DNA of 62,141 nt from Omnitrophica bacterium GWA2_41_15. GTDB lineage: Bacteria > Omnitrophota > Gorgyraeia > Gygaellales > Profunditerraquicolaceae. Positions within the stretch are counted from its first letter, which is position 1. Each line of letters starts with the position of its first letter. The notes under the pieces are model-generated. The model searched no databases, was not told the origin of the DNA, and saw nothing but the letters and a program-made list of their open reading frames with translations. A program made the position numbers and the translations under genes. Below are positions 34,078 to 51,235 of this stretch, piece after piece. The stretch spans positions 1-62,141 of the forward strand of contig CAKKQZ010000060.1 in assembly GCA_919902445.1 (NCBI GenBank), in the 5' to 3' direction.

Positions 34078-34080
34078 ATA

Positions 34081-38942: not shown

Positions 38943-40121
38943 ATGATTTCCTGGACAAAATTATTATCCTCCCCGAATGATTTAAAGAGGGGTTTTGAGA
39001 ATAACGGCCAGGATATAAAACCGGTAATAGTCTGGAATATAACTTCGTCCTGCAACCTCTCATGCTGTCATTGTTACCTTGAGTCATCAAAGATTCCTGC
39101 AGCCGAGATTCTCGATACGCAAAAATGCAAGAAAATCATCCTTGATTTAGCGGGATTTGGCGTTCCTGCGCTTCTTTTTTCCGGAGGAGAGCCGCTTTTA
39201 CGCAAAGACATATTTGAACTGGCAGAATTTTCCCGCCGATACGGTATAAGGCCGGTGCTTTCCAGCAACGGAACTTTAATTACCGAATCTAAGGCAAGGA
39301 AGATAAAAACTTCAGGCATAGAATATGCCGGTATAAGTATTGACGGTAAACCGGATACTCATGATAAATTGCGCGGCGAGAAAGGTTCATTTAAGAAGGC
39401 CGCCCTTGGGATAAGGAATTGTAAAGATGCGGGGGTAAAAGTTGGCGTGCGCTTTACTTTAATGAAGGATAATTCAAAAGATTTAGATTTTATTTTTAAT
39501 TTTGCGAGAAAAGAAAAGGTCAATCGCCTCTGCATTTACCATTTGGTTTATTCCGGGAGAGGAAGGCGGGAGAAAGAACTTTCCTTGGAAGAGAAAAGGG
39601 ACTGCCTTGAATTAATCTGGAATTACTCGGATACTTTCCATAGAGAGGATGAGCAAACCGAGATTCTTACAGTGGATAACCACTGCGACGGGGTATGGAT
39701 TTACCATAAAATGCTAAAATTCGATGAAGAGAGGGCAAACAAAATATTGAATTCTCTTTTGAAAAGCGGGGGAAACCAATCAGGGGTTTGTATCGGCTGC
39801 ATTGATTACCGGGGAGATGTTTATATAGATCAGTTTACGCGCGGGCATTCTTTAGGTAATGTAACCAAGAGGAAATTCGGTGAAATATGGGAGGATGAAA
39901 GCAATCTTTTGCTTTACGGATTAAGGCACCGCAAGGATTTTATCAAAGGAAGGTGCAAAGGATGCAGTTTTTTTTCTATCTGTAACGGCAATATGCGCGC
40001 CAGGGCGCAAGCAGTATACGGAGATTTCTGGGAAGAAGACCCCGGCTGTTACTTAAGCAACGAGGAGATAAATGTTGACGGATATCCGGCTGATATTCTG
40101 GGAAACTACAAGGGCTTGTAA
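38943..40121 (+). CDS. radical SAM/SPASM protein, AhbC/AhbD/NirJ family
   Basis: CNLSCCHCY radical SAM cluster, GGEPLL, and a C-terminal Cys-rich SPASM-like region CKGCSFFSICNGNMRA. Confidence 0.7.
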   Translation: MISWTKLLSSPNDLKRGFENNGQDIKPVIVWNITSSCNLSCCHCYLESSKIPAAEILDTQKCKKIILDLAGFGVPALLFSGGEPLLRKDIFELAEFSRRYGIRPVLSSNGTLITESKARKIKTSGIEYAGISIDGKPDTHDKLRGEKGSFKKAALGIRNCKDAGVKVGVRFTLMKDNSKDLDFIFNFARKEKVNRLCIYHLVYSGRGRREKELSLEEKRDCLELIWNYSDTFHREDEQTEILTVDNHCDGVWIYHKMLKFDEERANKILNSLLKSGGNQSGVCIGCIDYRGDVYIDQFTRGHSLGNVTKRKFGEIWEDESNLLLYGLRHRKDFIKGRCKGCSFFSICNGNMRARAQAVYGDFWEEDPGCYLSNEEINVDGYPADILGNYKGL

Positions 40122-41112
40122 CCTCGGATGCCCTCATTGTAGGGCTAGCGCAACCACTGAACCTTCACCCGAAGATTTAACCACGGATGAAGTAAAGAAA
40201 TTTATGGAACAGGCGGCTACATTTAGCAGGCCGATTTTAGTATTTTCCGGAGGAGAGCCGATATTGCGTAATGATCTGTATGAACTGCTTAGTTACGCAA
40301 ACAAGTTGGGATTAAAGCCGGCGCTGGCAACCAACGCCACTTTGATTTCCGAAGAAATTGCCTATAAATTAAAAGATAATGGCCTTAGCCTTGCTTCTGT
40401 TTCGATTTATGGCGCAAATGCAGAATCTCACGATTCATTTTGCGGGTTAAACGGCGCCTTTGAGAAGACATTAAAAGGAATAAATAATCTAAAAAAGGCA
40501 AAAGTCAATGTGCAGATAAATACTACTATAAGCAAAAAAAATTTAAAAGAATTGGAGGTAATAGGAGATTTTGCTTTAAAAATCGGCGCAGTAGCGTACC
40601 ATACCTTCTTTTTAGTTCCCACAGGCAGAGGAAGATATATCGAGGATGATGAAATATCCTCTCAAGAATATGAGAAGGCATTCAATCGCTTATATGATTA
40701 TCAGAAAGTTTTTCCTCTACGCATAAAAGCAACTTGCGCTCCCCATTATTACCGGATTTTACATATGAAAGAAGCAAAAACTAACGAAAGGTCAGACAAT
40801 GAGAAAAGTCGAGGCAAAGGATGCCTTGCCGGTCAGGGTGTTTGCTTTATCTCTCATAAGGGTGAGGTATTTGGTTGTGGATATTTACCTATTATAGCCG
40901 GTAACATTAGAAAACAAGATTTTAGGGATATTTGGTTTAAAAGTGAACTTTTTATAACCTTAAGAGATAATTCAAGATTACAGGGTAAATGCGGAGTTTG
41001 TGAATTTAAGGATGTCTGTGGTGGTTGTAGGGCGCGTGCCTATGCAGCCACAGGAAATTATTTAGAGGAGGATACAAAATGCGCCTATCAGCCCTTGACA
41101 AAAAGATTTTAA
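40072..41112 (+). CDS. radical SAM/SPASM protein, AhbC/AhbD/NirJ family (second copy)
   Basis: CNLGCPHC, GGEPIL, and C-terminal CGVCEFKDVCGGCRARA. Confidence 0.7.
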   Translation: MLTDIRLIFWETTRACNLGCPHCRASATTEPSPEDLTTDEVKKFMEQAATFSRPILVFSGGEPILRNDLYELLSYANKLGLKPALATNATLISEEIAYKLKDNGLSLASVSIYGANAESHDSFCGLNGAFEKTLKGINNLKKAKVNVQINTTISKKNLKELEVIGDFALKIGAVAYHTFFLVPTGRGRYIEDDEISSQEYEKAFNRLYDYQKVFPLRIKATCAPHYYRILHMKEAKTNERSDNEKSRGKGCLAGQGVCFISHKGEVFGCGYLPIIAGNIRKQDFRDIWFKSELFITLRDNSRLQGKCGVCEFKDVCGGCRARAYAATGNYLEEDTKCAYQPLTKRF

Positions 41113-41528
41113 ATAAAATTCAAGAAGATATTCCGTTAGTTCCTGAGCCATTTAAGGCATTGGCTAAAGATACAGGCGTTACTGAAGAGGATTTATTTAA
41201 GAGAATAGAAGAATTAAAAAACAAAGGAATCATCAGAGGCCATGCTGTAGGCATAAATCATAAAATTTTAGGTTTTAAGAGTACGCTTTTGGGCTTAAGA
41301 GTGTTGCAAGATAAGGTTGAAAGCTTAGGTAAAGAACTTGCGGCATATCCGGAAATTACCCATTGTTTCCAGCGTAAAGGTGAATTTAATCTCTGGGCTG
41401 TATTCATTTATAAGGATGGGAGATTAAAAGAGTTCCTGGATAAACTTGGCCAAAAAATTGGCAAAGAAAATATCTTGAATCTCAAGACATTAAGAAAGTT
41501 TAAGCTAAAGACAAGATTGAAGATTTAA
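41079..41528 (+). CDS. AsnC/Lrp-fold siroheme decarboxylase subunit (AhbA/AhbB/NirDLGH family)
   Basis: LDKKILNKIQEDIPLVPEPFKALAKDTGVTEEDLFKRIEELKNKGIIRG is the typical N-terminus of this family. Confidence 0.7.
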   Translation: MRLSALDKKILNKIQEDIPLVPEPFKALAKDTGVTEEDLFKRIEELKNKGIIRGHAVGINHKILGFKSTLLGLRVLQDKVESLGKELAAYPEITHCFQRKGEFNLWAVFIYKDGRLKEFLDKLGQKIGKENILNLKTLRKFKLKTRLKI

Positions 41529-41541
41529 ATGAAAATTTTTC

Positions 41542-41570
41542 TTGACAAACAGGATTAAGTTATTTATCAT
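41542..41570 (+). promoter_or_regulatory. sigma70-type promoter (TTGACA-17 nt-TATCAT)
   Basis: The TTG taken as the ORF start in the track is the -35 hexamer. The -10 is at 41565-41570. Confidence 0.55.
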
Positions 41571-41622
41571 AGGTTTATTCAGTTGTTTATTCAGTAACAG
41601 GTGTGCCATGAGGGAGGTTAGG

Positions 41623-42963
41623 ATGGGAAGAAAAAATCTGGTATTGTTAGGTATAAGTTTTTTTATGAGTTTATTTTTTATTAATTCTGCTTTTGCTATA
41701 CCTACCTTTGCCCGTAAGTATCGCACCAGTTGTAATACCTGCCATATAGCCATACCCAAACTAACTGCTTTTGGTGAATCTTATCGTTTGAATGGTTATC
41801 AGATTCCCGAAGGAGATGCAGCCTATGTAAAAGAAGAGCCGGTAAGTTTAGGTGCGCCTGCCTGGAAAAGGGTCTGGCCCGAGGCAGTTTGGCCGGGTAT
41901 GATTCCAGGGCCGGTGCCACTTTCCGTAAGAATCATTTCTGATTTTAAAGTTAATCAGGCAAGTGAAGCCGCAAGTACAGACTTTAATTTTCCCCATGAA
42001 ATAGAGTTGATGATGGCTGGCCTTTTAGATGAAAATCTGCCATTTTTTGCCGAAATTGAATTTGAAAAAGAGACTAGTTCAAGTTCAGTAGAAACTGATG
42101 TTGAGGCCTGGCTTGGTTTCTATAATCTATTTAGTAATGCATTACCGGAAAGGGCTCTTAATCTGAAAGTGGGAACGCTGGGGATTAATCCTTTACCTAT
42201 GGCTAATGACCACCTAAGAATCGGAAAGAACCACTATTTATATAATGACTGGAGATTAAGTAGCGCTTCTTCTGGAGCCAATGGTTTTCGTTTGAGAGAT
42301 CATCGAGGAGGTTTAGAACTGAATGGAATTTTGGCTGACCGCTTCTGGTACGGTGGCGGTGTAGTTAATGGAGTAAATTCTACGGATAAAGACGGTTATA
42401 TTATTACAAGATATAAATTCGGCGGGACACCTTTTAGCAAGTCAGCTCCTGGCGGAGGAACTGAAGAGGCCATAAAAGGGAAGGCAAGTGGTTTCTGGGT
42501 GGATAATGCCTTGGAGTTAGCCAGCTTTGGCTATTTTGGTTCCACGGAGATTGGTGCAGCAGCTACTGCTAACCAGGAAGACGATAAATTCTGGCGCGCG
42601 GGATTTGCTTTGCGCAATACCTACCAAAATTTTGATCTTAATGCCGGCTATATCTGGGGCAACAATGATGATCCTTATGGTAGTAGTAGCGCTCAGAACA
42701 TAAATTCACAAAGTTGGTTTGTGGAGACAAACTATGTATTTAAACCCTGGCTTATCGGAGAATTAAGATACGAAGCACTTGACGTAGATATGCCCACAGA
42801 TTTCACAGTTACCAATTTAGATAGGGCAAGGTGGGTTCCTGGTTTAATCTTTCAGATCAGGCCCAATATTAAGCTGGTGGCAGAGGCTTTAATCTACAGT
42901 AAGTATAAAGTAGCCAGTGATAGACAGAATAACTTTGTAGCGCGTTTGGATGCCAACTTTTAG
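41623..42963 (+). CDS. fused monoheme cytochrome c / outer-membrane beta-barrel, Cyc2-like candidate
   Basis: ATG 41623 after GGGAGG. Signal peptide ending SAFA, then PTFARKYRTSCNTCH (single CXXCH). About 400 aa rich in Gly and aromatic residues, ending in ...FVARLDANF (OMP-type C-terminal Phe). Confidence 0.6.
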   Translation: MGRKNLVLLGISFFMSLFFINSAFAIPTFARKYRTSCNTCHIAIPKLTAFGESYRLNGYQIPEGDAAYVKEEPVSLGAPAWKRVWPEAVWPGMIPGPVPLSVRIISDFKVNQASEAASTDFNFPHEIELMMAGLLDENLPFFAEIEFEKETSSSSVETDVEAWLGFYNLFSNALPERALNLKVGTLGINPLPMANDHLRIGKNHYLYNDWRLSSASSGANGFRLRDHRGGLELNGILADRFWYGGGVVNGVNSTDKDGYIITRYKFGGTPFSKSAPGGGTEEAIKGKASGFWVDNALELASFGYFGSTEIGAAATANQEDDKFWRAGFALRNTYQNFDLNAGYIWGNNDDPYGSSSAQNINSQSWFVETNYVFKPWLIGELRYEALDVDMPTDFTVTNLDRARWVPGLIFQIRPNIKLVAEALIYSKYKVASDRQNNFVARLDANF

Positions 42964-43004: not shown

Positions 43005-43044
43005 AACCCTTCCCCCCTTTTTATGAGGGGAAGGGTTATTTTTT
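43005..43044 (+). terminator. rho-independent terminator
   Basis: 11-bp stem AACCCTTCCCC / GGGGAAGGGTT followed by ATTTTTT. Confidence 0.65.
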
Positions 43045-43058: not shown

Positions 43059-43640
43059 ATGGGAAGAGTCATTTCTATTTTTTTGTTTTTGGTTATTTTC
43101 TGTTCAGAACCCTCTTTTGCAGGAGTAATTAAAGGCAAAGTTTCAACAGCGAAGTTAAAGGCACCCAAAGACATTGTAGTATATATAGACAAAATAGAAG
43201 GAAAAGAGCTTTCTTCATCTGGAGAGCCTGCAAAGATGGACCAGATTAAGCTGGTGTTTATCCCTTATGTTCTTCCTATAATCAAAGGCACAACTGTTGA
43301 GTTTCATAATAGTGATGATGTAAAGCATAATGTCTTTGCTGTAGGTACAGAAAATTTTGATTTAGGTACCTGGACCAAGGGGATCACCAAGTCATATACC
43401 TTTAATAAATTAGGAGATACAGCCATTCTTTGTAATGTGCATCCTGAAATGGAGGCATATGTTTTTGTGCTCCAGAATCCCTATTTTGCTATTACTGATG
43501 AAAATGGACAATACCAGATAAAAGATGTTCCCAGTGGTAGCTATAAATTAAAGGCCTGGCATAATCGGTTAAAGCCGGTTACAAAAGATGTGGATGTAGC
43601 TGCATCAGGAGAACTAAGTGTAGATTTTGAGCTCAAATAG
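43059..43640 (+). CDS. secreted type-1-like cupredoxin fused to a carboxypeptidase-regulatory-like (CarboxypepD_reg) domain
   Basis: Signal peptide. Candidate Cu ligands FHNSDDVKHNV ... CNVHPEM. Then ITDENGQYQIKDVPSGSYKLKAWH. Confidence 0.7.
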   Translation: MGRVISIFLFLVIFCSEPSFAGVIKGKVSTAKLKAPKDIVVYIDKIEGKELSSSGEPAKMDQIKLVFIPYVLPIIKGTTVEFHNSDDVKHNVFAVGTENFDLGTWTKGITKSYTFNKLGDTAILCNVHPEMEAYVFVLQNPYFAITDENGQYQIKDVPSGSYKLKAWHNRLKPVTKDVDVAASGELSVDFELK

Positions 43641-44150
43641 ATGAAAATAAAAAACAATATTCTTATCTTAGGTTTTTTATTTTGTGGTCTGGGTATTTTA
43701 GCAGGCCTTTTGCTGGCGAAGGCTAAGGTTTCTCTTCCTGTGCATAGACAGATTAGTATTGTATCTTATAAATATGGATATGAGCCAGCTGTGATACGGG
43801 TAAATCAAGGAGATACGATTACTTTGAAGTTAAAATCTAAAGACGTAACCCATGGTTTTTATCTTGAGGGGTATGATTTTGATGCCAAGGTAAGAGGGGA
43901 GATGCCGAGTTTCTGGATCAGGCATCCTTCGAAAAGCGAAGAATACGATAAAAACCCGATAGAAACCTATACCTTTGTGGCAAATAAGCCGGGTAAGTTT
44001 CGTTACCGTTGTTCTATAACTTGCGGCTCATTTCACCCATTTATGCAGGGAGAAATGATTGTTGTGCCCAATTACCTCTTCCCTGTTTCTACCGGGTTAG
44101 CTTTAGGTATGGTCTTTACCTGCCTGATTTATTTTAAGCGAAAAAGATGA
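43641..44150 (+). CDS. membrane-anchored cupredoxin with CuA-type motif (type A)
   Basis: N- and C-terminal TM helices. DVTHGF plus CSITCGSFHPFM (C-x3-C-x3-H-x2-M). Paralogue of 57711-58187. Confidence 0.65.
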   Translation: MKIKNNILILGFLFCGLGILAGLLLAKAKVSLPVHRQISIVSYKYGYEPAVIRVNQGDTITLKLKSKDVTHGFYLEGYDFDAKVRGEMPSFWIRHPSKSEEYDKNPIETYTFVANKPGKFRYRCSITCGSFHPFMQGEMIVVPNYLFPVSTGLALGMVFTCLIYFKRKR

Positions 44151-46978
44151 TTGATTTATTTGAAAAATTGCCCTTTTTATTAAAAGTCTGTAAAAGCCGA
44201 TGGCTGCAGTTTATCATTGTCTTTCCTACCTTATTAATATTTATTGTTTTTCTTTATGCCGGCATTTTTGGAACTCCGGTAGGAAACAAAAATATTATCA
44301 TTGTGTTTGTTTGGATTTTCTGGTGGATTTTGCTTATCGGTTTTATGGTGCCATTTGCATCACGTATATGGTGCTTGGTATGTCCTTTCCCGATTATTGG
44401 CGAATGGCTTCAACGTATGGCATTTATTAAGGTAAGGACTAGCGATACCCTATCAGGCTTAAAAAGTAAATACTTCGGAAAAAATAAACCTTGGCCAAAG
44501 AAACACAGGCACATCTGGTTTCAAAGCCTGGGTTTTCTATCCTTGGCGGTATTCAGCCCATTTTTAGTTACGCGCCCCTTTGTAAGTTTCATTGTCTTGG
44601 GTGGGTTATTTGCGGCGGCAACAGCATTAAGTTTAATCTATAAACAAAGGGTATTTTGTATGTATCTTTGCCCGGTAAGTGGATTCTTAGGGCTTTATTC
44701 TATGACCTCAAAACTTGGGCTTCGGGCAAAAGATGTAGAGTTGTGCAACCGCATTAAGAAAGATGAAGAGTTTAATTTTGATTATGGCATTGCAGCTTGT
44801 AGATTAAGCTGTCCCACAGGCATGGATGCCTCAAGTTATATTGCACTTATAGGCAGAGGCAGATACAAAGAAGCCCTGGAGGTAATAAAAGAAGCATCCC
44901 CCTTTGCTGGCGTTTTAGGCAGGGTGTGCACTCACCCCTGCGAGACTGAATGTGTTCGCAAAGAACTGGATGAGCCCATTTCTATTTGCCGCCTGAAGAG
45001 GTTTGTGGGAGATTATATAGGCTACAATGAGATGCAGCCAGCACAGGAGTTTAAACCGCGTTATAAAGAAAAAATAGCTATTATAGGCGCTGGACCTGCA
45101 GGTTTATCCTGCGCCTATCATTTAGTCAGGAATGGATACCAGACTACTGTTTATGAGGCACTTCCTGTTGCCGGCGGGATGATAAGAGTGGGCATTCCTT
45201 CATATAGACTGCCCAAAGACATTGTTGATAGAGAGATAGAGTATATAAAAAATAGTGGCGCGGATATTCGGACCAATATAGAGATTGGTCGGGATTTAGA
45301 TTTTGAGGAATTAAGAAAGGAGAACCAAGCAATATTTATTGCTGTTGGCGCTTCAGAGTCAAGGAGGCTGAAGATAGAAGGAGAGGATTTAAAAGGTGTT
45401 TACAATGCAATAGATATTTTACAGAAAGTAAGTTTGGGAGAGAAATTAGATTTGGGTAAAAGGGTTATAGTTATTGGCGGAGGTGATACAGCAATAGATA
45501 CAGCCCGGGCAATGCTCAGGCTGGGTTGCAATGAAGTCAGGATAGCATATCGGCGCACTAGAGACGAAATGCCTGCTATACCTGAAGAGGTAGTTGCTGC
45601 AGAAAAGGAAGGTATAAAAATAGATTTTCTTACTGCGCCGGTAAAGATTGAAGGAAGCAATGGCAGGGCAACATCCCTTCTCTGCACAAAGATGAGGTTA
45701 GGTCAACCTGATGAATCTGGAAGGCCACAACCTGTGCAAATCAAGGGTTCTGAGTATCTGATTTCAACTGACAGTATAATTGTAGCTACCGGACAATATT
45801 CAGATATAAACTTTTTACCCAAGGAATTAAGCATAAGTACTGCTGGCACCATAATCGTGGATACTCAAGACATGGTTACTAATATCCCTGGTATTTTTGC
45901 TGGTGGAGATGTGGTGAGCGGGCCTGATATTCTCGTTAAGGCCTTAGGTATGGGTAGGAGGGCTTCTATCGCCATTGACAGGTACCTGCGAGGTGAAGAA
46001 TTAAGCCGTATTTCTTTTTATCCTTCAGAGAAGAGGGTTGAGGAGGTACCCATAGGAATAATTGACAGAGAAGATAGGGTTAAATCACGCTTTCGACCAA
46101 TTGAGGAACGCATTAAAGATTTTAAAGAAGTAGAAGAGGTGTTTACAGAAAATATGGCAGTTCGGGAAGCCAAGAGATGCTTGAGTTGCGGAATATGCGG
46201 GGCGTGTTACCGTGGTTCAGATAAAGGATGGGCCTGCGCTTGGTTTGAAAAGATGGGGGGAATGGATAGAAATAATTATTGTGGCTTATGTATGGAGTGC
46301 GTAAAAAGCTGCCCCTATGATAATATCGGGCTCTATTGGCGGCCATTTGCTTGGGATAAAGATATCAAGGGTTATGATGAATCCTGGAAGTCCTTTATTA
46401 TGCTAGTCTTAGCGATTATTTATTCTATCAATTTGTTAAGCCCTTGGGGCAAGCTTAAGAATTTTCTTAACTTTACTGAAACAGGCACAGTAGGTCATTT
46501 TATCTTACTTAGTGTGAATATGCTTTTATGGTGCCTGGCACTATTTCCATCTATTCATTATCTCTTCTGCAAATTTTCCCAGTTGTTATCTAGGTCTAAA
46601 GAGGTGGAGACAAAAGAATTATTCTTAAAGTATTCCTATGCTTATGTTCCTTTGGGTCTTATGGCCTGGGTGTGTTTTAGCGTGCCGCTACTATTGATTA
46701 ATGGCAGTTATATCCTGGCAGTGATTTCCGACCCCTTTGGTTGGGGCTGGAACCTTTTTGGCACAGCGCATCTTCATTGGAGCCCTATATTACCGCACTG
46801 GGTTCCTTACATACAGGCACTTTTTATATTAGCAGGACTTTTCTACTCTGTAGTATCTGTATTTAAAATAGCCAAGAGGATATTTTCTCAAAAAGAAGAG
46901 GCTTTAAAAAGTATTATTCCCATAGTTGCGCTGCTTTTAATAATAACTATAATCTTTTTTAGGTTATATTTGGGTTAG
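44147..46978 (+). CDS. NapH-like polytopic Fe-S membrane protein with an inserted GltD-like NAD(P)H flavoprotein module
   Basis: WCLVCPFP and FCMYLCPVSG in the TM region. Insert carries CPTGMD...CTHPCETEC, IAIIGAGPAGL and VIGGGDTAID. It rejoins at CGLCMECVKSCPYDN, and the C-terminal TM part ISDPFGWGWNLFGTAH is shared with ORF 58180. Confidence 0.75.
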   Translation: MIDLFEKLPFLLKVCKSRWLQFIIVFPTLLIFIVFLYAGIFGTPVGNKNIIIVFVWIFWWILLIGFMVPFASRIWCLVCPFPIIGEWLQRMAFIKVRTSDTLSGLKSKYFGKNKPWPKKHRHIWFQSLGFLSLAVFSPFLVTRPFVSFIVLGGLFAAATALSLIYKQRVFCMYLCPVSGFLGLYSMTSKLGLRAKDVELCNRIKKDEEFNFDYGIAACRLSCPTGMDASSYIALIGRGRYKEALEVIKEASPFAGVLGRVCTHPCETECVRKELDEPISICRLKRFVGDYIGYNEMQPAQEFKPRYKEKIAIIGAGPAGLSCAYHLVRNGYQTTVYEALPVAGGMIRVGIPSYRLPKDIVDREIEYIKNSGADIRTNIEIGRDLDFEELRKENQAIFIAVGASESRRLKIEGEDLKGVYNAIDILQKVSLGEKLDLGKRVIVIGGGDTAIDTARAMLRLGCNEVRIAYRRTRDEMPAIPEEVVAAEKEGIKIDFLTAPVKIEGSNGRATSLLCTKMRLGQPDESGRPQPVQIKGSEYLISTDSIIVATGQYSDINFLPKELSISTAGTIIVDTQDMVTNIPGIFAGGDVVSGPDILVKALGMGRRASIAIDRYLRGEELSRISFYPSEKRVEEVPIGIIDREDRVKSRFRPIEERIKDFKEVEEVFTENMAVREAKRCLSCGICGACYRGSDKGWACAWFEKMGGMDRNNYCGLCMECVKSCPYDNIGLYWRPFAWDKDIKGYDESWKSFIMLVLAIIYSINLLSPWGKLKNFLNFTETGTVGHFILLSVNMLLWCLALFPSIHYLFCKFSQLLSRSKEVETKELFLKYSYAYVPLGLMAWVCFSVPLLLINGSYILAVISDPFGWGWNLFGTAHLHWSPILPHWVPYIQALFILAGLFYSVVSVFKIAKRIFSQKEEALKSIIPIVALLLIITIIFFRLYLG

Positions 46979-46983
46979 GGGTA

Positions 46984-47457
46984 ATGAAAAAAGAAAATAT
47001 AATAGAGATTTTTCTTTTAGTTTTAGTGGTGGCGTCGGTCATTTTACTCCCCCTTGTTATTATAAAAATTGATAAATACTATCTGGCCAGAAAATTTCCT
47101 AAAAATGCACAGGTGATAACCCTTTACGGCATAGCCAAGGGAGGCCTCTGGACCCAGGAACCGGTTAACAGCTTTAATTACTGGTGGAAGAGGTTTAAAC
47201 GTGCAGAAGAAATTCCCATCCGTGATGACGGCACTCCTATTTTTTTCCGCATAACCAGCACAGACGTGGTACACAGTTTTGCTATTCCTCTTTATCGTAT
47301 AGGTCCTTATGATATAAAGCCAGGAGAATTTACAGAGGTTGAACTTAAAACAGATAAAGAATTAGTAGATACGGGCTTTCTCTGTTGGCAATATTGCGAT
47401 AAAGACCACGAACATATGAAAGGCAGATTAGTTATCTTACCTAAAAATGAGGAGTGA
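46984..47457 (+). CDS. N-terminally anchored cupredoxin with CuA-type motif (type B)
   Basis: TM helix. DVVHSF plus CWQYCDKDHEHM (C-x3-C-x3-H-x2-M). Paralogue of 59609-59998. Confidence 0.6.
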   Translation: MKKENIIEIFLLVLVVASVILLPLVIIKIDKYYLARKFPKNAQVITLYGIAKGGLWTQEPVNSFNYWWKRFKRAEEIPIRDDGTPIFFRITSTDVVHSFAIPLYRIGPYDIKPGEFTEVELKTDKELVDTGFLCWQYCDKDHEHMKGRLVILPKNEE

Positions 47458-48110
47458 AAATTTTTAAAAAATTTATTTTTGTTAGCTTTTTAGCAATATT
47501 TTTTTCACTTATTATAGCCAGCCTCTTTCCTGAAGAAGCTAGCCATAAGTATTTCTATCAGGCACCTTGGTTTAAGTTCCTCTGGTTTATTGTTTCTATT
47601 GGTATAATTATTGTTTTTGTTAATTCTGTCCAAAGAAGAGATTTTGGATTTTCTATAATTTACCTGGGCCTTCTTCTTGTTTTACTGGCGGGCCTTTTGG
47701 CATCCTTATTCAAAGAAGAAGGGTTTATGGAGATGAAAAAAGGCCAGACTCAAGATGACTTCTGGATTAATGATGAGTCTTCAAAATCCTTAGGCTTTTC
47801 CCTATCTTTAAAGGATTTTTCAGTGGAATTTTATCCTAAAGAAGTAAAAGGGATGCGTTTTATTAAAGCTTATAAGACTTCCGTAGGAATTAGCAGAAAT
47901 GGGAAATTGCTTAAAGAGGCTACTATCGAAGTAAACAAGCCTTTAACCTTTGAGGGGTTTTGGTTTTATCAGTATGGTTATGAACCTAAGCTTCCTGAGC
48001 AAACTGTCCTGCAAGTAGTTAAAGATCCCGGACTTCCTTTAGCCTATAGTGGATATTTAATTTTGATGTTAGGTCTAGTGTTCTCATTCAGACGCCTATG
48101 GAAAATTTAG
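47454..48110 (+). CDS. ccsB: short ResB/CcsB-like cytochrome c biogenesis protein
   Basis: TM helices flank LSLKDFSVEFYP...EVNKPLTFEGFWFYQYGY...VVKDPGLP, a ResB-like periplasmic pattern. Much shorter than typical ResB. Confidence 0.6.
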   Translation: MKIFKKFIFVSFLAIFFSLIIASLFPEEASHKYFYQAPWFKFLWFIVSIGIIIVFVNSVQRRDFGFSIIYLGLLLVLLAGLLASLFKEEGFMEMKKGQTQDDFWINDESSKSLGFSLSLKDFSVEFYPKEVKGMRFIKAYKTSVGISRNGKLLKEATIEVNKPLTFEGFWFYQYGYEPKLPEQTVLQVVKDPGLPLAYSGYLILMLGLVFSFRRLWKI

Positions 48111-48862
48111 TTTTAATTTTATATTTACTTTCTTTACTTTTCTATTTTTTATCTTATTTTTTTAAACATAAGTTTTTTTCTCGCTTAGGCTTAATATTTT
48201 TAAGCACAGGACTCCTGTGTAGCTTCTATTTAGCAAGCACACATTTTTATACTACTCAACGCTTACCCTTAACTAACACATCTGAGACTCTTTTTTCACT
48301 GGTTACTCTTGTGGTTCTAGTGTATCTGGCATTAGAATGGAAGTTAGGATTGCCCAGAATATTGGGCTTGAGTGTTAGCTTGATTTCTCTTTCAGGTCTA
48401 TATTTAGCCTTTTACTTTTTCAAAAAGCCTTTGTTGCCTTTACTGCCTGCCCTGCAGAGCAGATGGCTGGTTTTTCATGTTTCAAGTTGTATTGTTGCTT
48501 ATGGTTTTTTTACCCTTGCATTTATCTGCGCAATAATTTACCTTGCCAGGAGCAATCCCGCGCTCATTATTTTCTCTATTATGCACCGTTCTATCTCTGT
48601 GGGGTTTTTATTTCTAACGCTGGGAATAATCTTGGGTTCAATCTGGGGTAAGTCTGCGTGGGGGCACTGGTGGAATTGGGATCCCAAGGAGACCTGGGCG
48701 TTAATTACCTGGTTTATTTATGCTGGCTATATGCATGCCAAATTATTTGGTAATTGGCCTAAAAGGAAACTTGCCCAAATAGCCGTCTTAGGATTTTTGT
48801 CTTGTCTTTTTACTTACCTAGGTGTAAATTATATTTTAAGAGGTTTACATAGCTATGCGTAA
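48098..48862 (+). CDS. ccsA: cytochrome c assembly protein CcsA (system II)
   Basis: Trp-rich WAWGHWWNWDPKETWALITW motif and polytopic profile. Confidence 0.85.
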   Translation: MENLVLILYLLSLLFYFLSYFFKHKFFSRLGLIFLSTGLLCSFYLASTHFYTTQRLPLTNTSETLFSLVTLVVLVYLALEWKLGLPRILGLSVSLISLSGLYLAFYFFKKPLLPLLPALQSRWLVFHVSSCIVAYGFFTLAFICAIIYLARSNPALIIFSIMHRSISVGFLFLTLGIILGSIWGKSAWGHWWNWDPKETWALITWFIYAGYMHAKLFGNWPKRKLAQIAVLGFLSCLFTYLGVNYILRGLHSYA

Positions 48863-49652
48863 AAATAAAATTAAAAATCAAAAAACTCTGCCAGAGAACG
48901 CGGTATATTCACCAATAATTATGGTGGAAAAAATAAAAATTATATTTGGCCTTTTACATTTTGTATCTGTCTTGTTGTTGCCTAGCATTGGATTTTGTGA
49001 CGTCTTGCGTTTGAGAGAAGTCCCAAAAGACAAAGAGGGAAATGAAGTTGAAATCTTGGAGGAAAAAGCAGACGCCTTTATTATTAAGGTTCCCAAGGAC
49101 GAGATTGAAGTAATCCTGAGAAAGCGCCCCACAGAGGCGAAGCTTTGGCATGAAAAACGAATTCTCTGGGAAGAAACCGGCGACTACATAACTATTTATT
49201 TACCAAAAGAAAAGATTATACTTCCTGAGGACTATAAAGGCGATGAATATGATGCCGCCAAAGGCTTAAAAAAAGAACTAACCTCAACAGGAGCTGAAGG
49301 AAGGCCTCCGGAGGCTACTTTTTGGAAAGGCACAAGCAAGATAACTGGTAGAATTTTAAATGGAGGAAACCCTTTATCTGGAGTTAAGATTAGAATTGTC
49401 AATGTTCCTTCTCAGGTGAGCGCGCTCTCCCAGATTCTTGGACCAAAGGTAGAAAGTCAGAAGGAATTGGTCTTTGATGCTACGACAAATGAATTAGGCT
49501 GGTATGAGTTAACTAATATCCCTATGGGAGAATATGATATCTTTTGGTCACTTCCCGGCAGTGAAAGTTGGTATCGCAAGCTAAGTGAAAAACCCAACAT
49601 CACCGTAAGACCGGGTGAGACAGTAAATTATCCAGATATAGAAACAAAATAG
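48855..49652 (+). CDS. secreted hypothetical protein with a CarboxypepD_reg-like C-terminal domain
   Basis: Hydrophobic N-terminus. ITGRILNGGNPLSGVKIRIVN and GWYELTNIPMGEYDIFW. Start codon is uncertain. Confidence 0.4.
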   Translation: MRKNKIKNQKTLPENAVYSPIIMVEKIKIIFGLLHFVSVLLLPSIGFCDVLRLREVPKDKEGNEVEILEEKADAFIIKVPKDEIEVILRKRPTEAKLWHEKRILWEETGDYITIYLPKEKIILPEDYKGDEYDAAKGLKKELTSTGAEGRPPEATFWKGTSKITGRILNGGNPLSGVKIRIVNVPSQVSALSQILGPKVESQKELVFDATTNELGWYELTNIPMGEYDIFWSLPGSESWYRKLSEKPNITVRPGETVNYPDIETK

Positions 49653-49657
49653 CGAAA

Positions 49658-50752
49658 ATGGACTTTTTGATTTTAGGGTTAAATCATAAAACTGCGCCTG
49701 TAGAAATTAGAGAAAGGGTTTCTTTTTCTACATCCGGTATTTCCTGCGCCTTAAGACTCTTACAAAAATACCCTTTTGTTAGTGAGTCTCTTATACTTTC
49801 TACCTGTAACCGAGTTGAGCTCTATGCAGTTGTGGAAGATAAAGTAGAAGGTTTAAAGAGCCTTAAAGAATTTCTATACCGATATCATGAACTCAAAGAT
49901 TCCTTAGACCCGTATCTTTATTTTTATGAAAATGAGCTTGCGCTTAGACATACCTTTAGAGTTACATCATCATTAGACTCTATGGTCGTAGGAGAAAATC
50001 AGATACTCCATCAGGTAAGGCAGGCGTATCTGAGGGCGCAGGAAGCAGGTTCAACGGGTAGAGTTTTAACTTCCGTCTTTCAGGAGGCCTTGCGGGTGGC
50101 AAAGATGGCGCGCACTCAAACTGGAATCAATAAAGGAGCCGTTTCCATAGGTAGTGTAGCTGTAGAATTGGCAAAGGAGATATTAAAGGATTTAAAAGAT
50201 AAAAAAATATTAATTATTGGTGCAGGAAAAGTTAGTGAGCTAACAGTAAAAAACTTAGCAGAGCGAGGAGTAAATTTAATTCTGGTGGCAAACCGTACCT
50301 TTGAAAATGCTCTAAAGCTTGCCCAAATCTTTCAAGGTGAGGCTATAAAGTTTGATAAGTTAAATGAGGTTTTAAAAGAGGTTGATATTGTAATCAGTTC
50401 TACCAATTCTCCCCATTATATTTTAAGAAAAAAAGATATACTTTCAGTTATTAGTGAAAGAGGCCATAAGCCATTATTTCTTATCGACTTAAGCGTTCCC
50501 AGAAATATAGAACACGCTGTCTCAGAGATCAAAGATACGCATCTTTATAATATTGATGACCTTCAGAAGATAAGCCAGTTAAATCTAAAGGAAAGATTAA
50601 AAGAAGCCCATAAAGCAGAGAAAATAGTTAAAGAAGAATCAGATAAGTTTTATGCTAAGATAACAGATATCTTTTTATATGGGCATATGATTGTTGATGT
50701 GAAAGAGGCAATGATGGGATGTTTAAACATCCCCTTTGTGGGTAGTTCATAA
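49658..50752 (+). CDS. hemA: glutamyl-tRNA reductase
   Basis: LGLNHKTAPVEIRE, LSTCNRVELY, GENQIL, IGAGK. C-terminal dimerisation region is shorter than usual. Confidence 0.9.
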   Translation: MDFLILGLNHKTAPVEIRERVSFSTSGISCALRLLQKYPFVSESLILSTCNRVELYAVVEDKVEGLKSLKEFLYRYHELKDSLDPYLYFYENELALRHTFRVTSSLDSMVVGENQILHQVRQAYLRAQEAGSTGRVLTSVFQEALRVAKMARTQTGINKGAVSIGSVAVELAKEILKDLKDKKILIIGAGKVSELTVKNLAERGVNLILVANRTFENALKLAQIFQGEAIKFDKLNEVLKEVDIVISSTNSPHYILRKKDILSVISERGHKPLFLIDLSVPRNIEHAVSEIKDTHLYNIDDLQKISQLNLKERLKEAHKAEKIVKEESDKFYAKITDIFLYGHMIVDVKEAMMGCLNIPFVGSS

Positions 50753-51207: not shown

Positions 51208-51235
51208 TTGACACCTGTGAGTTTTATATTATACT
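51208..51235 (+). promoter_or_regulatory. sigma70-type promoter (TTGACA-16 nt-TATACT)
   Basis: -35 at 51208-51213 and -10 at 51230-51235, upstream of the Rrf2 gene. Confidence 0.5.

Follow-up and report, generated by a model that had tools for sequence, protein, structure and literature searches.

A cassette of two different CuA-motif cupredoxins and one nine-helix Fe-S membrane protein is encoded twice in a 62,141-nt stretch of the genome of Omnitrophica bacterium GWA2_41_15 (GCA_919902445.1, contig CAKKQZ010000060.1, positions 1-62,141 of the forward strand; hereinafter the window) and is found in more than 10 phyla. We propose, with a probability of roughly 60%, that each of these gene triads encodes a three-subunit, heme-free copper/Fe-S inner-membrane complex that conveys electrons from a reductant in the cytoplasm or the membrane to partners in the periplasm and the outer membrane. 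The initial annotation, which presented positions 43641-47457, had read the cassette as an electron-transfer module reused for two different partners, and synteny, conservation of the CuA ligands and natural gene fusions agree with this reading. The two partners are a periplasmic enzyme of the nitrite/nitrate oxidoreductase (NXR) type and an outer-membrane Cyc2-type cytochrome-porin accompanied by a type-1 copper protein (Table 1). No functional name for the cassette exists in the databases searched, and no published description was found in the literature.

Table 1. Features of the window that bear on the two triads
Feature	Coordinates	Strand	Length (aa)	Evidence
AhbC/NirJ1-like and AhbD-like radical SAM proteins, AhbA-like siroheme decarboxylase subunit	38943..41528	+		NCBIfam, strong yet below curated cut-offs (462 vs 650, 456 vs 500, 114 vs 140 bits)
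Cyc2-family fused monoheme cytochrome-porin, outer membrane	41542..42963	+		Diagnostic motif, fold
PcCPD, secreted type-1 (blue) copper-like domain + CarboxypepD_reg Ig-like domain	43059..43640	+		CarboxypepD_reg 37.4 bits
cupA1, type-A CuA-motif cupredoxin	43641..44150	+	169	Pfam Cupredoxin_1 29.8 bits
mem1, nine-helix Fe-S membrane protein + inserted GltD-like module	44147..46978	+	943	Pfam Pyr_redox_2 116 bits, Fer4_20 76 bits
cupB1, type-B CuA-motif cupredoxin	46984..47457	+	157	Pfam COX2 25.9 bits (cut-off 22); NCBIfam CoxB E 8e-14
System II cytochrome c maturation	47454..48862	+		Pfam/NCBIfam
 ResB-like (short)	47454..48110	+		Pfam ResB 88 bits
 CcsA/CcsB	48098..48862	+		Pfam Cytochrom_C_asm 148 bits; NCBIfam CcsB 192 bits (cut-off 188)
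End of the triad 1 gene string	48855..50752	+		Pfam
 Secreted CarboxypepD_reg protein	48855..49652	+
 Glutamyl-tRNA reductase HemA	49658..50752	+		GlutR families, assigned on an identical contig
Rrf2-family regulator	51273..51677	+		NCBIfam rrf2_super 97.6 bits (cut-off 73.3)
Periplasmic NXR-type molybdoenzyme operon	51674..57633	+
 NxrA	51674..55096	+
 NxrB	55093..56235	+
 TorD/NarJ-like chaperone	56195..56794	+
 NxrC (heme b subunit)	56791..57633	+
cupA2, type-A CuA-motif cupredoxin	57711..58187	+	158	Pfam COX2 31.5 bits, Cupredoxin_1 36.6 bits
mem2, nine-helix Fe-S membrane protein, unadorned family form	58180..59604	+	474	Pfam Fer4_5 27.2 bits
cupB2, type-B CuA-motif cupredoxin	59609..59998	+	129	Pfam Cupredoxin_1 36.3 bits; COX2 21.8 bits, just below the cut-off of 22

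All six ORFs of the two triads are found at the positions given in the initial annotation. The duplicated three-gene order, with paralogy at each position, is borne out by pairwise BLASTP: cupA1 and cupA2 are 38% identical (E 2e-28), mem1 and mem2 align in two blocks, the N-terminal 212 aa at 39% identity (E 1e-42) and the C-terminal 264 aa at 38% (E 5e-62), and cupB1 and cupB2 share 37% over 57 aa (E 4e-9). Because the copies are 38% identical whereas mem2 is 62-94% identical to its best 120 database matches, several of which are assigned by their sources to other phyla, the two triads are old, diverged copies rather than the outcome of a recent duplication.

Each of the four small proteins carries the complete H...C-x3-C-x3-H-x2-M ligand spacing, as had been claimed, and among the window's ORFs of at least 50 aa in six frames the core C-x3-C-x3-H-x2-M occurs in exactly these four. 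The motifs read DVTHGF...CSITCGSFHPFM in cupA1, VVHSF...CWQYCDKDHEHM in cupB1 and VTHGF...CTVWCSTRHMQM in cupB2; most of the cupredoxin motifs given in the initial annotation are present as quoted, the exception being cupB1, where VVHSF stands in place of VTH[SG]F. The type-A proteins combine an N-terminal signal or anchor with a C-terminal transmembrane helix (residues 3-21 and 145-163 in cupA1; a signal peptide and C-terminal helix in cupA2), and the type-B proteins possess an N-terminal anchor (a single transmembrane segment, residues 9-27, in cupB1). The CuA domain of the Thermus ba3 oxidase aligns with cupA2 (E 2e-12 to 2e-10), every ligand being in register, and models of the NosZ CuA domain match cupB2 at E 8e-13. 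Conservation of the Cys/His/Met motif among homologs had been named as a test of the CuA assignment; the ligands are retained in 103 of the 115 cupredoxins examined, from many phyla (45/47 free A-type, 15/21 fused A-type and 43/47 B-type); all four domains of the window are predicted to hold copper.

Both membrane proteins contain the motifs WCLVCPFP/WCLMCPFP, FCMYLCPVSG/FCLYVCPVSG, CG.C.EC.K.CPYDN and ISDPF.WGWNLFGTAH; all of these had been noted before, although the first is spaced C-x2-C-P rather than C-x3-C-P. Eleven cysteines of mem2 are invariant (C91/C94, C178/C182, C207, C215, C225 and C240/243/246/250), only seven of them in the cytoplasmic domain, compared to eight in a classical 2x[4Fe-4S] ferredoxin. 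In the topology predicted from hydropathy and the positive-inside rule, the Fe-S/GltD loop is cytoplasmic and the conserved SDPFxWGW loop periplasmic. The AF2 model of mem2 has pLDDT 86 and pTM 0.87, and neither sequence nor fold searches identified a PDB relative. The module is of the NapGH/NosGH/NosR kind, but the earlier description of its membrane protein as NapH-like applies no further than the shared Fer4_5 domain: the NapH/MauN family model fails (21 bits against a cut-off of 213), and nine helices are predicted instead of the four of NapH. Accordingly, a quinol site should not be assumed from homology, and a quinol-dehydrogenase role is putative. The homologue comparison revealed no invariant His and no conserved periplasmic metal ligands, so the electron route across the ~30 Å membrane is not evident.

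The mem1 protein is twice as long as mem2 owing to an insertion of ~460-500 residues (roughly 215-700) that comprises a GltD-like module, with Fer4_20 ([4Fe-4S]) and FAD/NAD(P) domains, and is bounded on both sides by regions paralogous to mem2; the initial annotation did not mention this insertion. Against the NCBIfam model PRK12771 ("NAD(P)-binding protein"), mem1 reaches 491 bits, under the cut-off of 516. The fusion is present in about 30 database proteins, some of them named Scalindua and Latescibacter, that align with 98-100% of the mem1 length and contain the same GltD-type Pfam domains, and a separate GltD-like gene follows the mem gene in all three actinomycetotal loci scanned (L078, L088 and L089). 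From its sequence, copy 1 is predicted to be wired to NAD(P)(H) via this flavoprotein.

Synteny outside this genome had likewise been proposed as a test: the order cupA-mem-cupB is complete in 43 of the 69 loci for which sequence is available on both sides, across Omnitrophota, Chloroflexota, Bacteroidales, Desulfobacterota, Planctomycetota, Archaeoglobus and other groups. Natural fusions join cupA to the membrane protein (27 of 150 family representatives, plus many close homologs), NxrC to cupA (two Brocadiaceae loci) and cupB to a C-terminal cytochrome c (Chloroflexota L014 and L025, Acidobacteriota L090 and Planctomycetes L092). Some membrane proteins have something other than a cupredoxin as their N-terminal periplasmic domain; this is then a cytochrome c or a c554-like multiheme domain, in keeping with a module that trades electrons with a one-electron carrier in the periplasm.

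The cupB-cytochrome c fusions resemble the caa3 arrangement, and the architecture as a whole mimics oxidase subunit II. Furthermore, as the initial annotation had stated, oxidase subunit I and NosZ were not seen in the window (no Pfam match among the ORFs scanned), and neither is found among the scanned recurrent neighbour families; Chloroflexota, the source of most of the triads found, have no linked partner enzyme, a point that also weighs against the favored electron-transfer reading. The triad itself might therefore be a novel terminal oxidoreductase, in which electrons would come in through the CuA domains, as they do in heme-copper oxidases and NosZ, and the membrane protein, or a site to which it contributes, would reduce, for instance, O2, NO, N2O or a metal ion. 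We consider this very unlikely given that the membrane and periplasmic loops contain no conserved His, Met or acidic cluster that could form a catalytic metal site, the invariant motifs consist of cytoplasm-facing cysteines only, both copies in the window are attached to recognisable partners, and the GltD module speaks for a role on the donor side.

Many triads also travel with copper-related genes. Among the recurrent neighbours are genes for a PCYCGC protein (23 loci), an HMA protein (6), a multicopper oxidase (4) and Sco1, and one locus includes a CopY/BlaI-type repressor with a YtkA-like protein. In some family members the cupA domain is replaced by the copper chaperone NosL or by YHS/TRASH metal-binding domains, and in some homologs Sco1-like domains are fused to cupB or to the membrane protein. 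The cassette is conserved as such, but to call it self-contained, as the initial annotation did, is too strong because Sco1, PCYCGC, NosL and HMA genes often accompany it. All these neighbours and fused domains may serve the assembly of the CuA centres, and they would fit a role in copper homeostasis equally well. Under the latter scenario, the membrane protein, which shares the Fer4_5 domain with CcoG/FixG, would be a CcoG-like cupric reductase (CcoG reduces cupric copper) or a thiol/metal reductase that provides the periplasm with Cu(I) or reducing power; the cupredoxins would then buffer or carry copper, or be clients in which this reductase keeps the CuA cysteines reduced. This appears unlikely. 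The strictly conserved binuclear CuA ligands characterise electron-transfer sites and not chaperones; the fusions with NxrC and cytochrome c fit electron transfer rather than copper trafficking, and the remaining N-terminal replacements are c-type cytochromes; the FixG_C and Fer4_18 domains typical of CcoG were not found by Pfam; and copper-handling neighbours are in any case expected for the assembly of two CuA centres.

Copy 2 closes the nxrA-B-chaperone-C operon in a gene string headed by the Rrf2-family gene (a sigma-70-like site at 51208-51235 matches the consensus at 11 of 12 positions, a consensus match only). NxrA aligns over its full length with Kuenenia NXR-A (7b04_B; E 1.6e-270) and retains the C-x2-N-D motif (Cys67/Asn70/Asp71) together with the Mo-ligand Asp; NxrC matches 7b04_C and keeps the heme ligands Met155 and Lys305. 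Models for the type II DMSO-reductase beta subunit, chaperone and gamma subunit match the respective genes, all under curated cut-offs. Omnitrophota, Hakubella, Brocadiaceae and an unclassified bacterium share a conserved nxr-triad string. Electrons that reach the NXR-C heme cannot go further within NXR (Chicano et al., 2021); this dead end implies that an external carrier is required.

Copy 1 follows the genes for the Cyc2-type protein and PcCPD. The former, for which the likely true start is ATG 41623 (a 446-aa form, as annotated at NCBI), contains AIPTFARKY-x3-CNTCH-x3-PKL, in agreement with the diagnostic Cyc2 motif AXPXFAR[Q/K][T/Y]...CXXCH...PXL (Keffer et al., 2021). Of 120 homologs, 112 contain this motif and 119 have a single CxxCH; among the window's ORFs of at least 90 aa no other contains CxxCH. 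The AF2 model consists of an N-terminal helical region followed by ~16 beta strands and in Foldseek matches the 16-strand porins PorB and OmpF as well as OprP (E 1e-10 to 1e-12). PcCPD scores 19.2 bits against Pfam Copper-bind, under the cut-off of 21.2, and shows the ligand pattern H...C-N-V-H-P-E-M; its gene is always positioned between cyc2 and cupA, and the C-x2-H-x2-M core is present in 10 of 10 homologs from Cyc2-linked loci (the upstream His in 9). A conserved cyc2-T1Cu-triad string is shared by Bacteroidales, Marinimicrobia, Desulfobacterota, Acidobacteriota and Planctomycetes; a Scalindua contig (L008) encodes cyc2, T1Cu, Sco1, cupA and mem but ends before any cupB. Downstream, the ResB-like/CcsA block overlaps the end of triad 1 (start/stop codon overlaps of 4 to 13 bases), and the string ends with the genes for the CarboxypepD_reg protein and HemA. 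HemA is also encoded near the triad of a Latescibacter locus (L007). Directly upstream of cyc2 lie the Ahb-like genes for alternative heme b synthesis, possibly a part of the same supply chain.

Cyc2 is a validated iron oxidase in neutrophilic and acidophilic iron oxidizers, and the same complex could conceivably operate in reverse, passing periplasmic electrons (from Fe(II) via Cyc2 and type-1 copper, or from nitrite via NXR) to the quinone pool or NAD(P)+, and thereby provide biosynthesis with NAD(P)H by reverse electron transport or quinol bifurcation. Such a device would resemble the "uphill" branch of iron oxidation in Acidithiobacillus and, in anammox bacteria, the proposed Rieske/cytochrome b complexes that include an NAD(P) oxidoreductase subunit. 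Indeed, in one locus (L091) cyc2-T1Cu is followed by GltD-like, Rieske, cytochrome b and multiheme c genes in place of the triad, which suggests that the triad is interchangeable with a bc-type complex that carries an NAD(P) module, and GltD-type domains of known enzymes work in both directions. Nevertheless, inward transfer seems improbable: the step from copper centres, with typical potentials of +0.2 to +0.4 V, to NAD(P)+ (-0.32 V) is steeply uphill and opposes the membrane potential; the fold search detected no likeness of the nine-helix protein to known ion-translocating modules; most Cyc2-linked triads lack the GltD module; and several host lineages give the impression of anaerobic heterotrophs or fermenters.

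In the outward-directed complex that we favor, the Fe-S clusters of the nine-helix subunit would lie at the cytoplasmic face, in the ferredoxin-like domain and, where this face meets the membrane, at two Cys-x2/3-Cys-Pro motifs. The cupredoxins would be tethered beside this subunit, type A by its C-terminal and type B by its N-terminal helix, with the binuclear CuA centres exposed in the periplasm and adjoining the conserved NGSY...SDPFxWGW loop. Reducing equivalents would pass from the membrane subunit to the CuA domains and on to high-potential periplasmic partners, a direction suggested by general redox-potential reasoning; since there is no conserved heme ligand, electrons would have to cross the membrane by way of a bound quinone or by aromatic hopping. 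Other genes of the window specify Nqr/Rnf, a MenA-like enzyme and enzymes of beta-oxidation, which makes NAD(P)H and menaquinol plausible donors. Copy 2 would draw on a cytoplasmic donor and/or menaquinol and deliver electrons to the heme b subunit NxrC, with the NXR-type enzyme then running as a nitrate reductase. Copy 1 would be fed by NAD(P)H through its built-in GltD-like flavoprotein and discharge to the type-1 copper protein and the outer-membrane Cyc2 cytochrome-porin, a copper chain that would trade electrons with the outside of the cell, through Fe(II)/Fe(III) or some other extracellular couple. The cassette probably connects these partner enzymes to the electron supply of the cell.

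Two triads of the same gene order are encoded in the window, each consisting of a type-A cupredoxin with a CuA motif (cupA), an Fe-S membrane protein (mem) and a type-B cupredoxin with the same kind of motif (cupB). Both are on the forward strand, and the ORFs sit exactly where the initial annotation put them (see the table), with neighbouring genes within each triad either overlapping or separated by no more than 5 bases. The paralogy proposed for each position likewise holds: cupA1 and cupA2 are 38% identical (E 2e-28), mem1 and mem2 are 39% identical in the N-terminal half (E 1e-42) and 38% identical in the C-terminal half (E 5e-62), and cupB1 and cupB2 share 37% identity over the half that contains the copper site (E 4e-9). 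The description of the membrane proteins has to be corrected in that mem1 is twice as long as mem2. The contig is part of a Candidatus Omnitrophota MAG, and its sequence has also been assembled, in identical form, from Hainich groundwater.

Features of the window and of homologous loci in other genomes (L, loci; P, family proteins; positions without a label are those of the window)
Feature	Location	Strand	Remarks
cupA1	43641-44150	+	ORF, triad 1
mem1	44147-46978	+	ORF, triad 1, 943 aa
cupB1	46984-47457	+	ORF, triad 1
cupA2	57711-58187	+	ORF, triad 2
mem2	58180-59604	+	ORF, triad 2, 474 aa
cupB2	59609-59998	+	ORF, triad 2
Cyc2-like gene	41542-42963		
Type-1 copper-like protein gene	43059-43640		
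Rrf2 regulator and nxr genes	51273-57633		
Ahb-type genes	38943-41528		
ResB-like gene	47454-48110		218 residues
Hairpin	43005-43037		13 bp
Sigma-70-like sites	41542-41570; 51208-51235		11 of 12 positions
Histidine kinase gene	59988-61106	-	
Rnf/Nqr hybrid	30329-35794		six genes
Beta-oxidation set	8165-14945		
Y1 transposase gene	28689-29279		IS200-like
Split chemotaxis protein gene	21987-22439; 22485-23894		two ORFs
AAA_14 + DUF4143 ATPase genes	19726-21012; 23978-25207		paralogous
NxrC-cupA fusions	L011 8496-9956; L012 8574-9977		486 or 467 aa, Brocadiaceae MAGs
Cyc2 locus with cytochrome b	L091 8001-17090		JGI 3300009538, 606-kb contig
N-terminal domain swaps in mem family	P0274, P0293, P0295, P0306; L069, L071		
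PCYCGC/HMA/multicopper oxidase examples	L025 8500-8970; L015 1305-1637; L062 6701-8314		Chloroflexota

All four cupredoxins carry the full ligand set His...Cys-x3-Cys-x3-His-x2-Met, as the initial annotation had noted, and a search of all six reading frames finds the C-x3-C-x3-H-x2-M core in four ORFs only, namely these four. The more specific motifs offered alongside stand except in two places: cupB1 has VVHSF in place of the pattern given for type B, and the first motif of the membrane proteins is in fact C-x2-C-P. Each cupredoxin is recognized by the Pfam model Cupredoxin_1, by COX2 or by both. In searches with the COX2 profile (PF00116, cut-off 22), cupA2 (31.5) and cupB1 (25.9) score above the cut-off and cupB2 (21.8) just below it; cupA1 matches only Cupredoxin_1 (PF13473, 29.8 against a cut-off of 27). 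The matches of the cupredoxins to the NCBIfam models of CoxB and of the NosZ CuA domain are below threshold. In an alignment with the soluble ba3 oxidase CuA domain from Thermus (E 2e-12 to 2e-10), cupA2 has all five subunit II ligands (two His, two Cys and one Met) in register. The type-A proteins are predicted to possess an N-terminal signal or anchor and a C-terminal helix, and the type-B proteins a single N-terminal helix. As had been observed from the sequence, the window encodes neither oxidase subunit I nor NosZ, no such Pfam family being present among the ORFs scanned; neither subunit I nor the NosZ propeller was detected among the recurrent neighbour families scanned in related loci. 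On these scans of window ORFs and recurrent neighbour families, a hidden oxidase or NosZ operon is rejected. By sequence tests, these cupredoxins qualify as CuA domains, yet they come without the partner, oxidase subunit I or NosZ, that defines such domains elsewhere. Subunit II of heme-copper oxidases (Thermus ba3, caa3) resembles them in the fold, the in-register ligands and the membrane anchor, and the likeness to caa3 extends to the C-terminal cytochrome c that B-type cupredoxins often carry. The differences are that two distinct CuA proteins would belong to each complex, with no subunit I seen, and that the type-A protein is anchored C-terminally and often fused to the Fe-S membrane protein.

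The designation of the membrane protein as NapH-like is only partly apt. The single Pfam domain detected in mem2, Fer4_5 (27.2 bits, cut-off 22), is indeed shared with NapH, whereas the match to the NapH/MauN family model (TIGR02163; 21 bits, E 2e-4) is far below the cut-off of 213. Members of that family are characterized by four transmembrane helices, two C-x3-C-P motifs and two 4Fe-4S motifs (PMC3475470). By contrast, mem has nine predicted helices, one C-x2-C-P and one C-x3-C-P motif, one canonical CxxCxxCxxxCP motif and three further invariant cysteines. In total, 11 cysteines are invariant (in mem2, C91-x2-C94-P, C178-x3-C182-P, C207, C215, C225 and C240-x2-C243-x2-C246-x3-C250-P), as are many tryptophans, and no histidine is conserved across the family, which excludes a transmembrane wire of b-type hemes. 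The C-terminal half comprises five helices and a conserved NGSY...SDPFxWGW loop. The AF2 model of mem2 is confident (pLDDT 86, pTM 0.87). No PDB sequence matched mem2 at E values up to 1, and a Foldseek search of the PDB with the model yielded a best E value of 0.08 and TM scores of 0.12-0.15, hence no structural analogy; none of the triad proteins is named by an NCBIfam model above its cut-off. The cupric reductase CcoG/FixG, which is likewise connected with copper biology, also combines a Fer4_5 membrane part with [4Fe-4S] clusters in the cytoplasm. It differs in the number of helices and in that mem accompanies CuA cupredoxins rather than cbb3 oxidase assembly genes; furthermore, Pfam detects no Fer4_18 or FixG_C domain in mem2, in which it recognizes Fer4_5 alone.

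The additional length of mem1 comes from a nearly complete GltD/NfnB-like module inserted in the loop after helix 4, in which Pfam recognizes Fer4_20 (75.9 bits) and Pyr_redox_2 (116.3 bits) along with NAD_binding_8 and Pyr_redox, and which scores just below the cut-off of PRK12771 (491 against 516 bits). Flavoproteins of the GltD/NfnB/SudA type combine the same Fer4_20 and FAD/NAD(P) domains and transfer electrons between NAD(P)(H) and chains of Fe-S centres; in mem1, however, the module resides within a loop of an integral membrane protein, an arrangement for which no described precedent was found. Because NAD(P)H is cytoplasmic and the charges of the mem loops obey the positive-inside rule, the Fe-S domain is predicted to face the cytoplasm and the SDPFxWGW loop the periplasm.

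The nearest known way of working is that of NapGH, NosGH and NosR, in which a membrane polyferredoxin feeds a periplasmic metalloenzyme. These are also Fer4_5 proteins with Cys-x-Cys-Pro motifs at the cytoplasmic face of the membrane and cytoplasmic [4Fe-4S] motifs, encoded beside the periplasmic metalloenzyme whose electron source they are thought to be, and the recipient in the case of NosR/NosH is the CuA domain of NosZ. They possess 4-6 helices as opposed to the nine of mem, with its C-terminal five-helix half and SDPFxWGW loop, and the place of the periplasmic NapG/NosG ferredoxin or FMN domain is taken in the triad by two tethered CuA cupredoxins. Judged by this analogy, the triad is a variant on the scheme of a membrane polyferredoxin with a periplasmic redox partner.

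The mem family is large, with 1,852 clusters at 50% identity (E up to 1e-3), 250 of them at 1e-30. Scanning one genome for each species, we confirmed 195 loci and retrieved the best 80; these 80 belong to Omnitrophota, Brocadiaceae, Bacillota, many Chloroflexota, Zixibacteria, Bacteroidales, Marinimicrobia, Desulfobacterota, Planctomycetota, Acidobacteriota, Actinomycetota, Nitrospirota and Archaeoglobus. Together with loci from earlier look-ups, 79 loci were scored after removal of duplicates. A type-A cupredoxin is located upstream of mem or fused to it in 60 of these, and the complete order cupA-mem-cupB occurs in 43 of the 69 loci with sequence on both sides, which bears out the expectation that the triad is syntenic beyond this genome. 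The CuA ligands are conserved in 45/47 free and 15/21 fused A-type proteins and in 43/47 B-type proteins, with the consensus sequences C-S-V-T-C-G-x-[LMF]-H-P-F-M and C-T-R-W-C-[GS]-x-N-H-W-R-M, respectively. Given these counts, two of the outcomes that the initial annotation had named as telling against it, a motif unconserved in homologs and a triad without synteny elsewhere, are not observed. In the source databases, the proteins bear generic names such as '4Fe-4S binding protein', 'polyferredoxin', 'cupredoxin domain-containing protein', 'FAD-dependent oxidoreductase' or 'hypothetical protein'.

Domain fusions link the parts of the triad to one another. cupA is fused to the N-terminus of mem in 27 of the 150 representatives of the family, as well as in several proteins closely related to mem2; in the loci of both Brocadiaceae MAGs, NxrC and cupA form a single polypeptide encoded directly upstream of mem; cupB carries a C-terminal cytochrome c domain in two Chloroflexota (L014 and L025), one acidobacterial (L090) and one planctomycete (L092) locus; and Sco1-like domains are fused to cupB or mem in some homologs. 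The GltD module is inserted in mem in about 30 proteins, some of them under the names Scalindua and Latescibacter, and a GltD-like protein is encoded as a separate gene next after mem in the three Actinomycetota loci scanned. At the N-terminus of mem, the CuA cupredoxin may also be replaced by a monoheme cytochrome c, a c554-like multiheme domain, NosL or a YHS/TRASH domain. Such NosL and YHS swaps, along with the many copper-related neighbours of the triad, would suit a role in copper handling, with mem acting as a CcoG-like cupric or thiol reductase; we consider this unlikely, since the CuA sites are conserved and fusions with NxrC and with cytochrome c occur.

In Chloroflexota, where most of the triads were found, no linked partner enzyme was detected. 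Genes seen repeatedly near these triads encode a PCYCGC-motif protein, a histidine kinase and a LuxR-type regulator, sometimes accompanied by HMA and multicopper oxidase genes; the PCYCGC-motif protein (PF13798) is encoded upstream of the triad in 23 cases, with an HMA-domain protein nearby in six and a multicopper oxidase in four. These neighbours may deliver copper to the CuA sites or may be a sign of copper homeostasis. The stand-alone chloroflexotal loci, together with the subunit II-like architecture of the cupredoxins, could also be taken to indicate a novel terminal oxidoreductase with CuA as the entry point, a reading rendered very improbable by the lack of candidate catalytic ligands.

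The two copies in the window belong to two subfamilies, each with a genomic context of its own. Since the contexts of mem1-type and mem2-type loci differ, the copies are best regarded as long-diverged members of the family with different partners, and the suggestion that the cassette is used for two partners is upheld: the mem2 type goes with an nxr gene string, and the mem1 type with genes for a Cyc2-like protein and a type-1 copper-like protein. A recent tandem duplication or an assembly artefact is rejected: the copies are just 38% identical and belong to subfamilies with different conserved contexts, and triad 1 and its flanks are present on two other independently assembled contigs.

Triad 2 closes a gene string that encodes an Rrf2 regulator, NxrA, NxrB, a TorD-like chaperone and NxrC. 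NxrA aligns over its full length (residues 3-1139) with Kuenenia NXR-A (7b04_B, E 1.6e-270); the second-best match is the molybdopterin subunit of a type II enzyme of the DMSO reductase family (4ydd_A, E 4e-61). The signature of NXR includes Cys67/Asn70/Asp71 (FS0-substrate), the Mo ligand Asp275 and the NXR-C heme residues Met155/Lys305 (Chicano et al., 2021). In the alignments, CAPND and WHTD of NxrA fall on CSPND and WHGD of the Kuenenia protein, and the heme-ligating Met and Lys are retained in NxrC. The N-terminus of NxrA, aligned to KLTRRAFLQ of Kuenenia, is Tat-like except for R-K in place of R-R. By the full-length similarity and the signature residues, the enzyme is of the periplasmic NXR type and is closer to NXR-A than to Nar, Ebd or Pcr. 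The whole string nxrA-B-chaperone-C-cupA-mem-cupB recurs in the loci nearest to mem2, in an Omnitrophica MAG, Candidatus Hakubella, two Brocadiaceae MAGs and an unclassified bacterium, with a Sco1 gene inserted in some cases. A histidine kinase gene convergent with cupB2 overlaps the last 11 bases of the latter and is followed by the gene for a response regulator with an HTH_17-like N-terminus; this pair may regulate the nxr-triad string.

In the canonical nxr clusters of Kuenenia, Nitrospira and Nitrospina, the genes for NxrABC and a TorD-like chaperone are accompanied by those for two copper proteins resembling cupredoxins and for a membrane protein presumed to connect NXR with the respiratory chain (Lücker et al., 2013). 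The mention of these two cupredoxin-like proteins is the nearest statement that we found in the literature, and their likeness to cupA and cupB is one of description. The membrane component of those clusters resembles cytochrome bd oxidase, with 14 helices and ligands for heme b, and is encoded alongside c-type cytochromes, as opposed to the heme-free Fe-S protein found here. No description of the cassette itself was found in full-text literature searches on NXR, NapH-like proteins or Cyc2 together with cupredoxins, or on polyferredoxin/NosR/CuA.

Triad 1 is preceded by a gene of the Cyc2 family of cytochrome-porins and then by a gene for a secreted protein in which a type-1 copper ligand pattern (C-N-V-H-P-E-M) is fused to a CarboxypepD_reg domain (hereafter the T1Cu protein). 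Diagnostic of Cyc2 is a single CXXCH that is closely preceded by PXFAR[Q/K][T/Y] and followed, at a distance of four residues, by PXL (Keffer et al., 2021); the protein in the window reads AIPTFARKY-RTS-CNTCH-IAI-PKL. The motif together with CxxCH is present in 112 of 120 homologs, always with a 3-residue spacer (given as '5 amino acids upstream' by Keffer et al., 2021, a figure that does not agree with the spacer as counted here), and 119 of the 120 have exactly one CxxCH. With a length of 446-473 aa, the Cyc2-like protein exceeds the required minimum of at least 365 residues, and its AF2 model (pLDDT 80), with about 16 long strands, agrees with the 16-strand porin expected behind the heme domain and retrieves PorB, OmpF and OprP (2o4v) in Foldseek at E 1e-10 to 7e-12.

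This protein is the sole candidate c-type cytochrome of the window. Triad 1 is followed without a break by the ResB/CcsA genes for the maturation of cytochrome c and by those for a CarboxypepD_reg protein and HemA. The ResB-like protein covers profile positions 152-266 of 486 and is unusually short for a system II component. Directly upstream of the Cyc2-like gene are AhbC/NirJ1-like, AhbD-like and AhbA-like genes for siroheme-dependent heme b synthesis, so that, with HemA and ResB/CcsA downstream, heme supply is clustered with the only c-type cytochrome. The Cyc2-like and T1Cu genes are separated by a G+C-rich hairpin that has T-runs on either strand, and the best sigma-70-like sites precede the Cyc2-like and Rrf2 genes; these are weak hints, and the site counts in the promoter and terminator scan do not exceed those in shuffled sequence.

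In mem1-type loci, the order is cyc2, T1Cu gene, cupA, mem and cupB, mostly without the GltD insertion, and the hosts are Bacteroidales, Marinimicrobia, Desulfobacterota, Acidobacteriota and Planctomycetes. A Scalindua contig (L008) carries cyc2, the T1Cu gene, Sco1, cupA and a GltD-bearing mem, and stops before any cupB. In another locus (L091), the place of the triad after cyc2 and the T1Cu gene is taken by genes for a GltD-like flavoprotein with Fe-S clusters, a Rieske protein, cytochrome b and multiheme c-type cytochromes, a set that looks like a functional substitute for it. The same arrangement favours a reading in which the complex would run in reverse, yielding NAD(P)H by reverse electron transport or quinol bifurcation, which we regard as improbable on energetic grounds.

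The rus operon of Acidithiobacillus ferrooxidans (cyc2, cyc1, coxBACD, rus) encodes a copper-rich chain from the outer to the inner membrane. The loci described here are similar in that a Cyc2 cytochrome-porin is encoded together with a type-1 copper protein and a CuA-bearing protein, subunit II in the case of rus. They differ in that the inner-membrane end is an Fe-S protein, to which an NAD(P)H module is added in this genome, instead of an aa3 oxidase, and in that no periplasmic Cyc1 is encoded. The hosts of cyc2-triad loci are, in our impression, neutrophilic and probably anaerobic.

Taken together, these observations lead us to infer the following function, copper content and direction of electron flow. 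The three proteins of a triad would form one complex, with the Fe-S clusters at the cytoplasmic face of the membrane and two CuA centres at the periplasmic face. The donor would be NAD(P)H through the GltD module in the case of copy 1, and menaquinol or a cytoplasmic donor in the case of copy 2. The window contains a MenA-like gene and a polyprenyl synthase gene, which makes menaquinone plausible and does not imply menaquinol oxidation by mem. As no heme ligand is conserved, electrons would have to cross the membrane through a bound quinone, a cluster on the four interface cysteines or aromatic hopping along the many invariant tryptophans.

CuA and type-1 copper centres normally have potentials of about +0.2 to +0.4 V. 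The Met/Lys-ligated heme of NXR-C is likely to be of high potential as well, electrons cannot pass beyond it within the NXR complex, and the Kuenenia enzyme works in both directions in vitro (Chicano et al., 2021). On these potentials, the simplest flow would be from a low-potential donor through the membrane subunit and the copper centres to NXR acting as a nitrate reductase. The Cyc2-like and T1Cu proteins would join the same copper pool to the cell exterior and, on potential grounds, are more likely to serve the entry of electrons from Fe(II) than their exit to ferric minerals.

The rest of the window offers some context. Upstream of the region of triad 1, the Ahb-type, MenA-like and polyprenyl synthase genes are joined by MoeA and an Nqr/Rnf operon. 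The latter is a six-gene Rnf/Nqr hybrid, the first subunit of which combines RnfC_N, a Nuo51 FMN domain, Fe-S motifs and NQRA_SLBB, and the last of which is NqrF-like (2Fe-2S, FAD and NAD domains); an IS200-like Y1 transposase is encoded between pilus genes and this operon. A beta-oxidation set (AMP-binding enzyme, thiolase, fused enoyl-CoA hydratase/3-hydroxyacyl-CoA dehydrogenase and acyl-CoA dehydrogenase) suggests an organotrophic source of NAD(P)H. A methyl-accepting chemotaxis protein is apparently split over two ORFs, with dCache_1 positions 2-87 in the first and 133-193, along with HAMP and MCPsignal, in the second, a case of frameshift, pseudogene or assembly error. Paralogous ATPases with AAA_14 and DUF4143 domains flank the small cheY/cheW/MCP group.

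The triad is real, widespread and structurally uncharacterised, and no explanation for it was found. With a probability of roughly 0.2, it is a previously unrecognised class of respiratory complex, a heme-free copper/Fe-S quinol- or NAD(P)H:periplasmic-acceptor oxidoreductase that takes the role of bc1 or Alternative Complex III in many anaerobes, the two copies in this genome making up one complete enzymatic chain. In such a chain, Fe(II) outside the cell would donate electrons that travel via Cyc2 and the type-1 copper protein to copy 1, where those of NAD(P)H would join them, and copy 2 and NXR would pass them on to nitrate.

To our knowledge, CuA centres are confined to cytochrome oxidases, NosZ and a small number of related proteins; a family of separate CuA proteins that are tethered to the membrane and cooperate there with an Fe-S membrane protein would be a new setting for the cofactor, and a NAD(P)H flavoprotein inside the loop of a membrane protein is unusual in itself. 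The triad further bears on two questions, the membrane connection of periplasmic NXR and the inner-membrane end of Cyc2 pathways. Regarding the former, the role of the accessory proteins of nxr clusters was only speculative (Lücker et al., 2013), and the NxrC-cupA and cupA-mem fusions provide a concrete, biochemically testable candidate for the link. Regarding the latter, the triad is a candidate for the inner-membrane end in organisms other than the classical iron oxidizers, and nitrate-dependent iron oxidation by Omnitrophota becomes testable. Should the triad indeed be an unrecognised respiratory complex, the long-sought membrane link of periplasmic NXR-type enzymes would be identified, and enzymatic nitrate-dependent iron oxidation would have a genetic basis.
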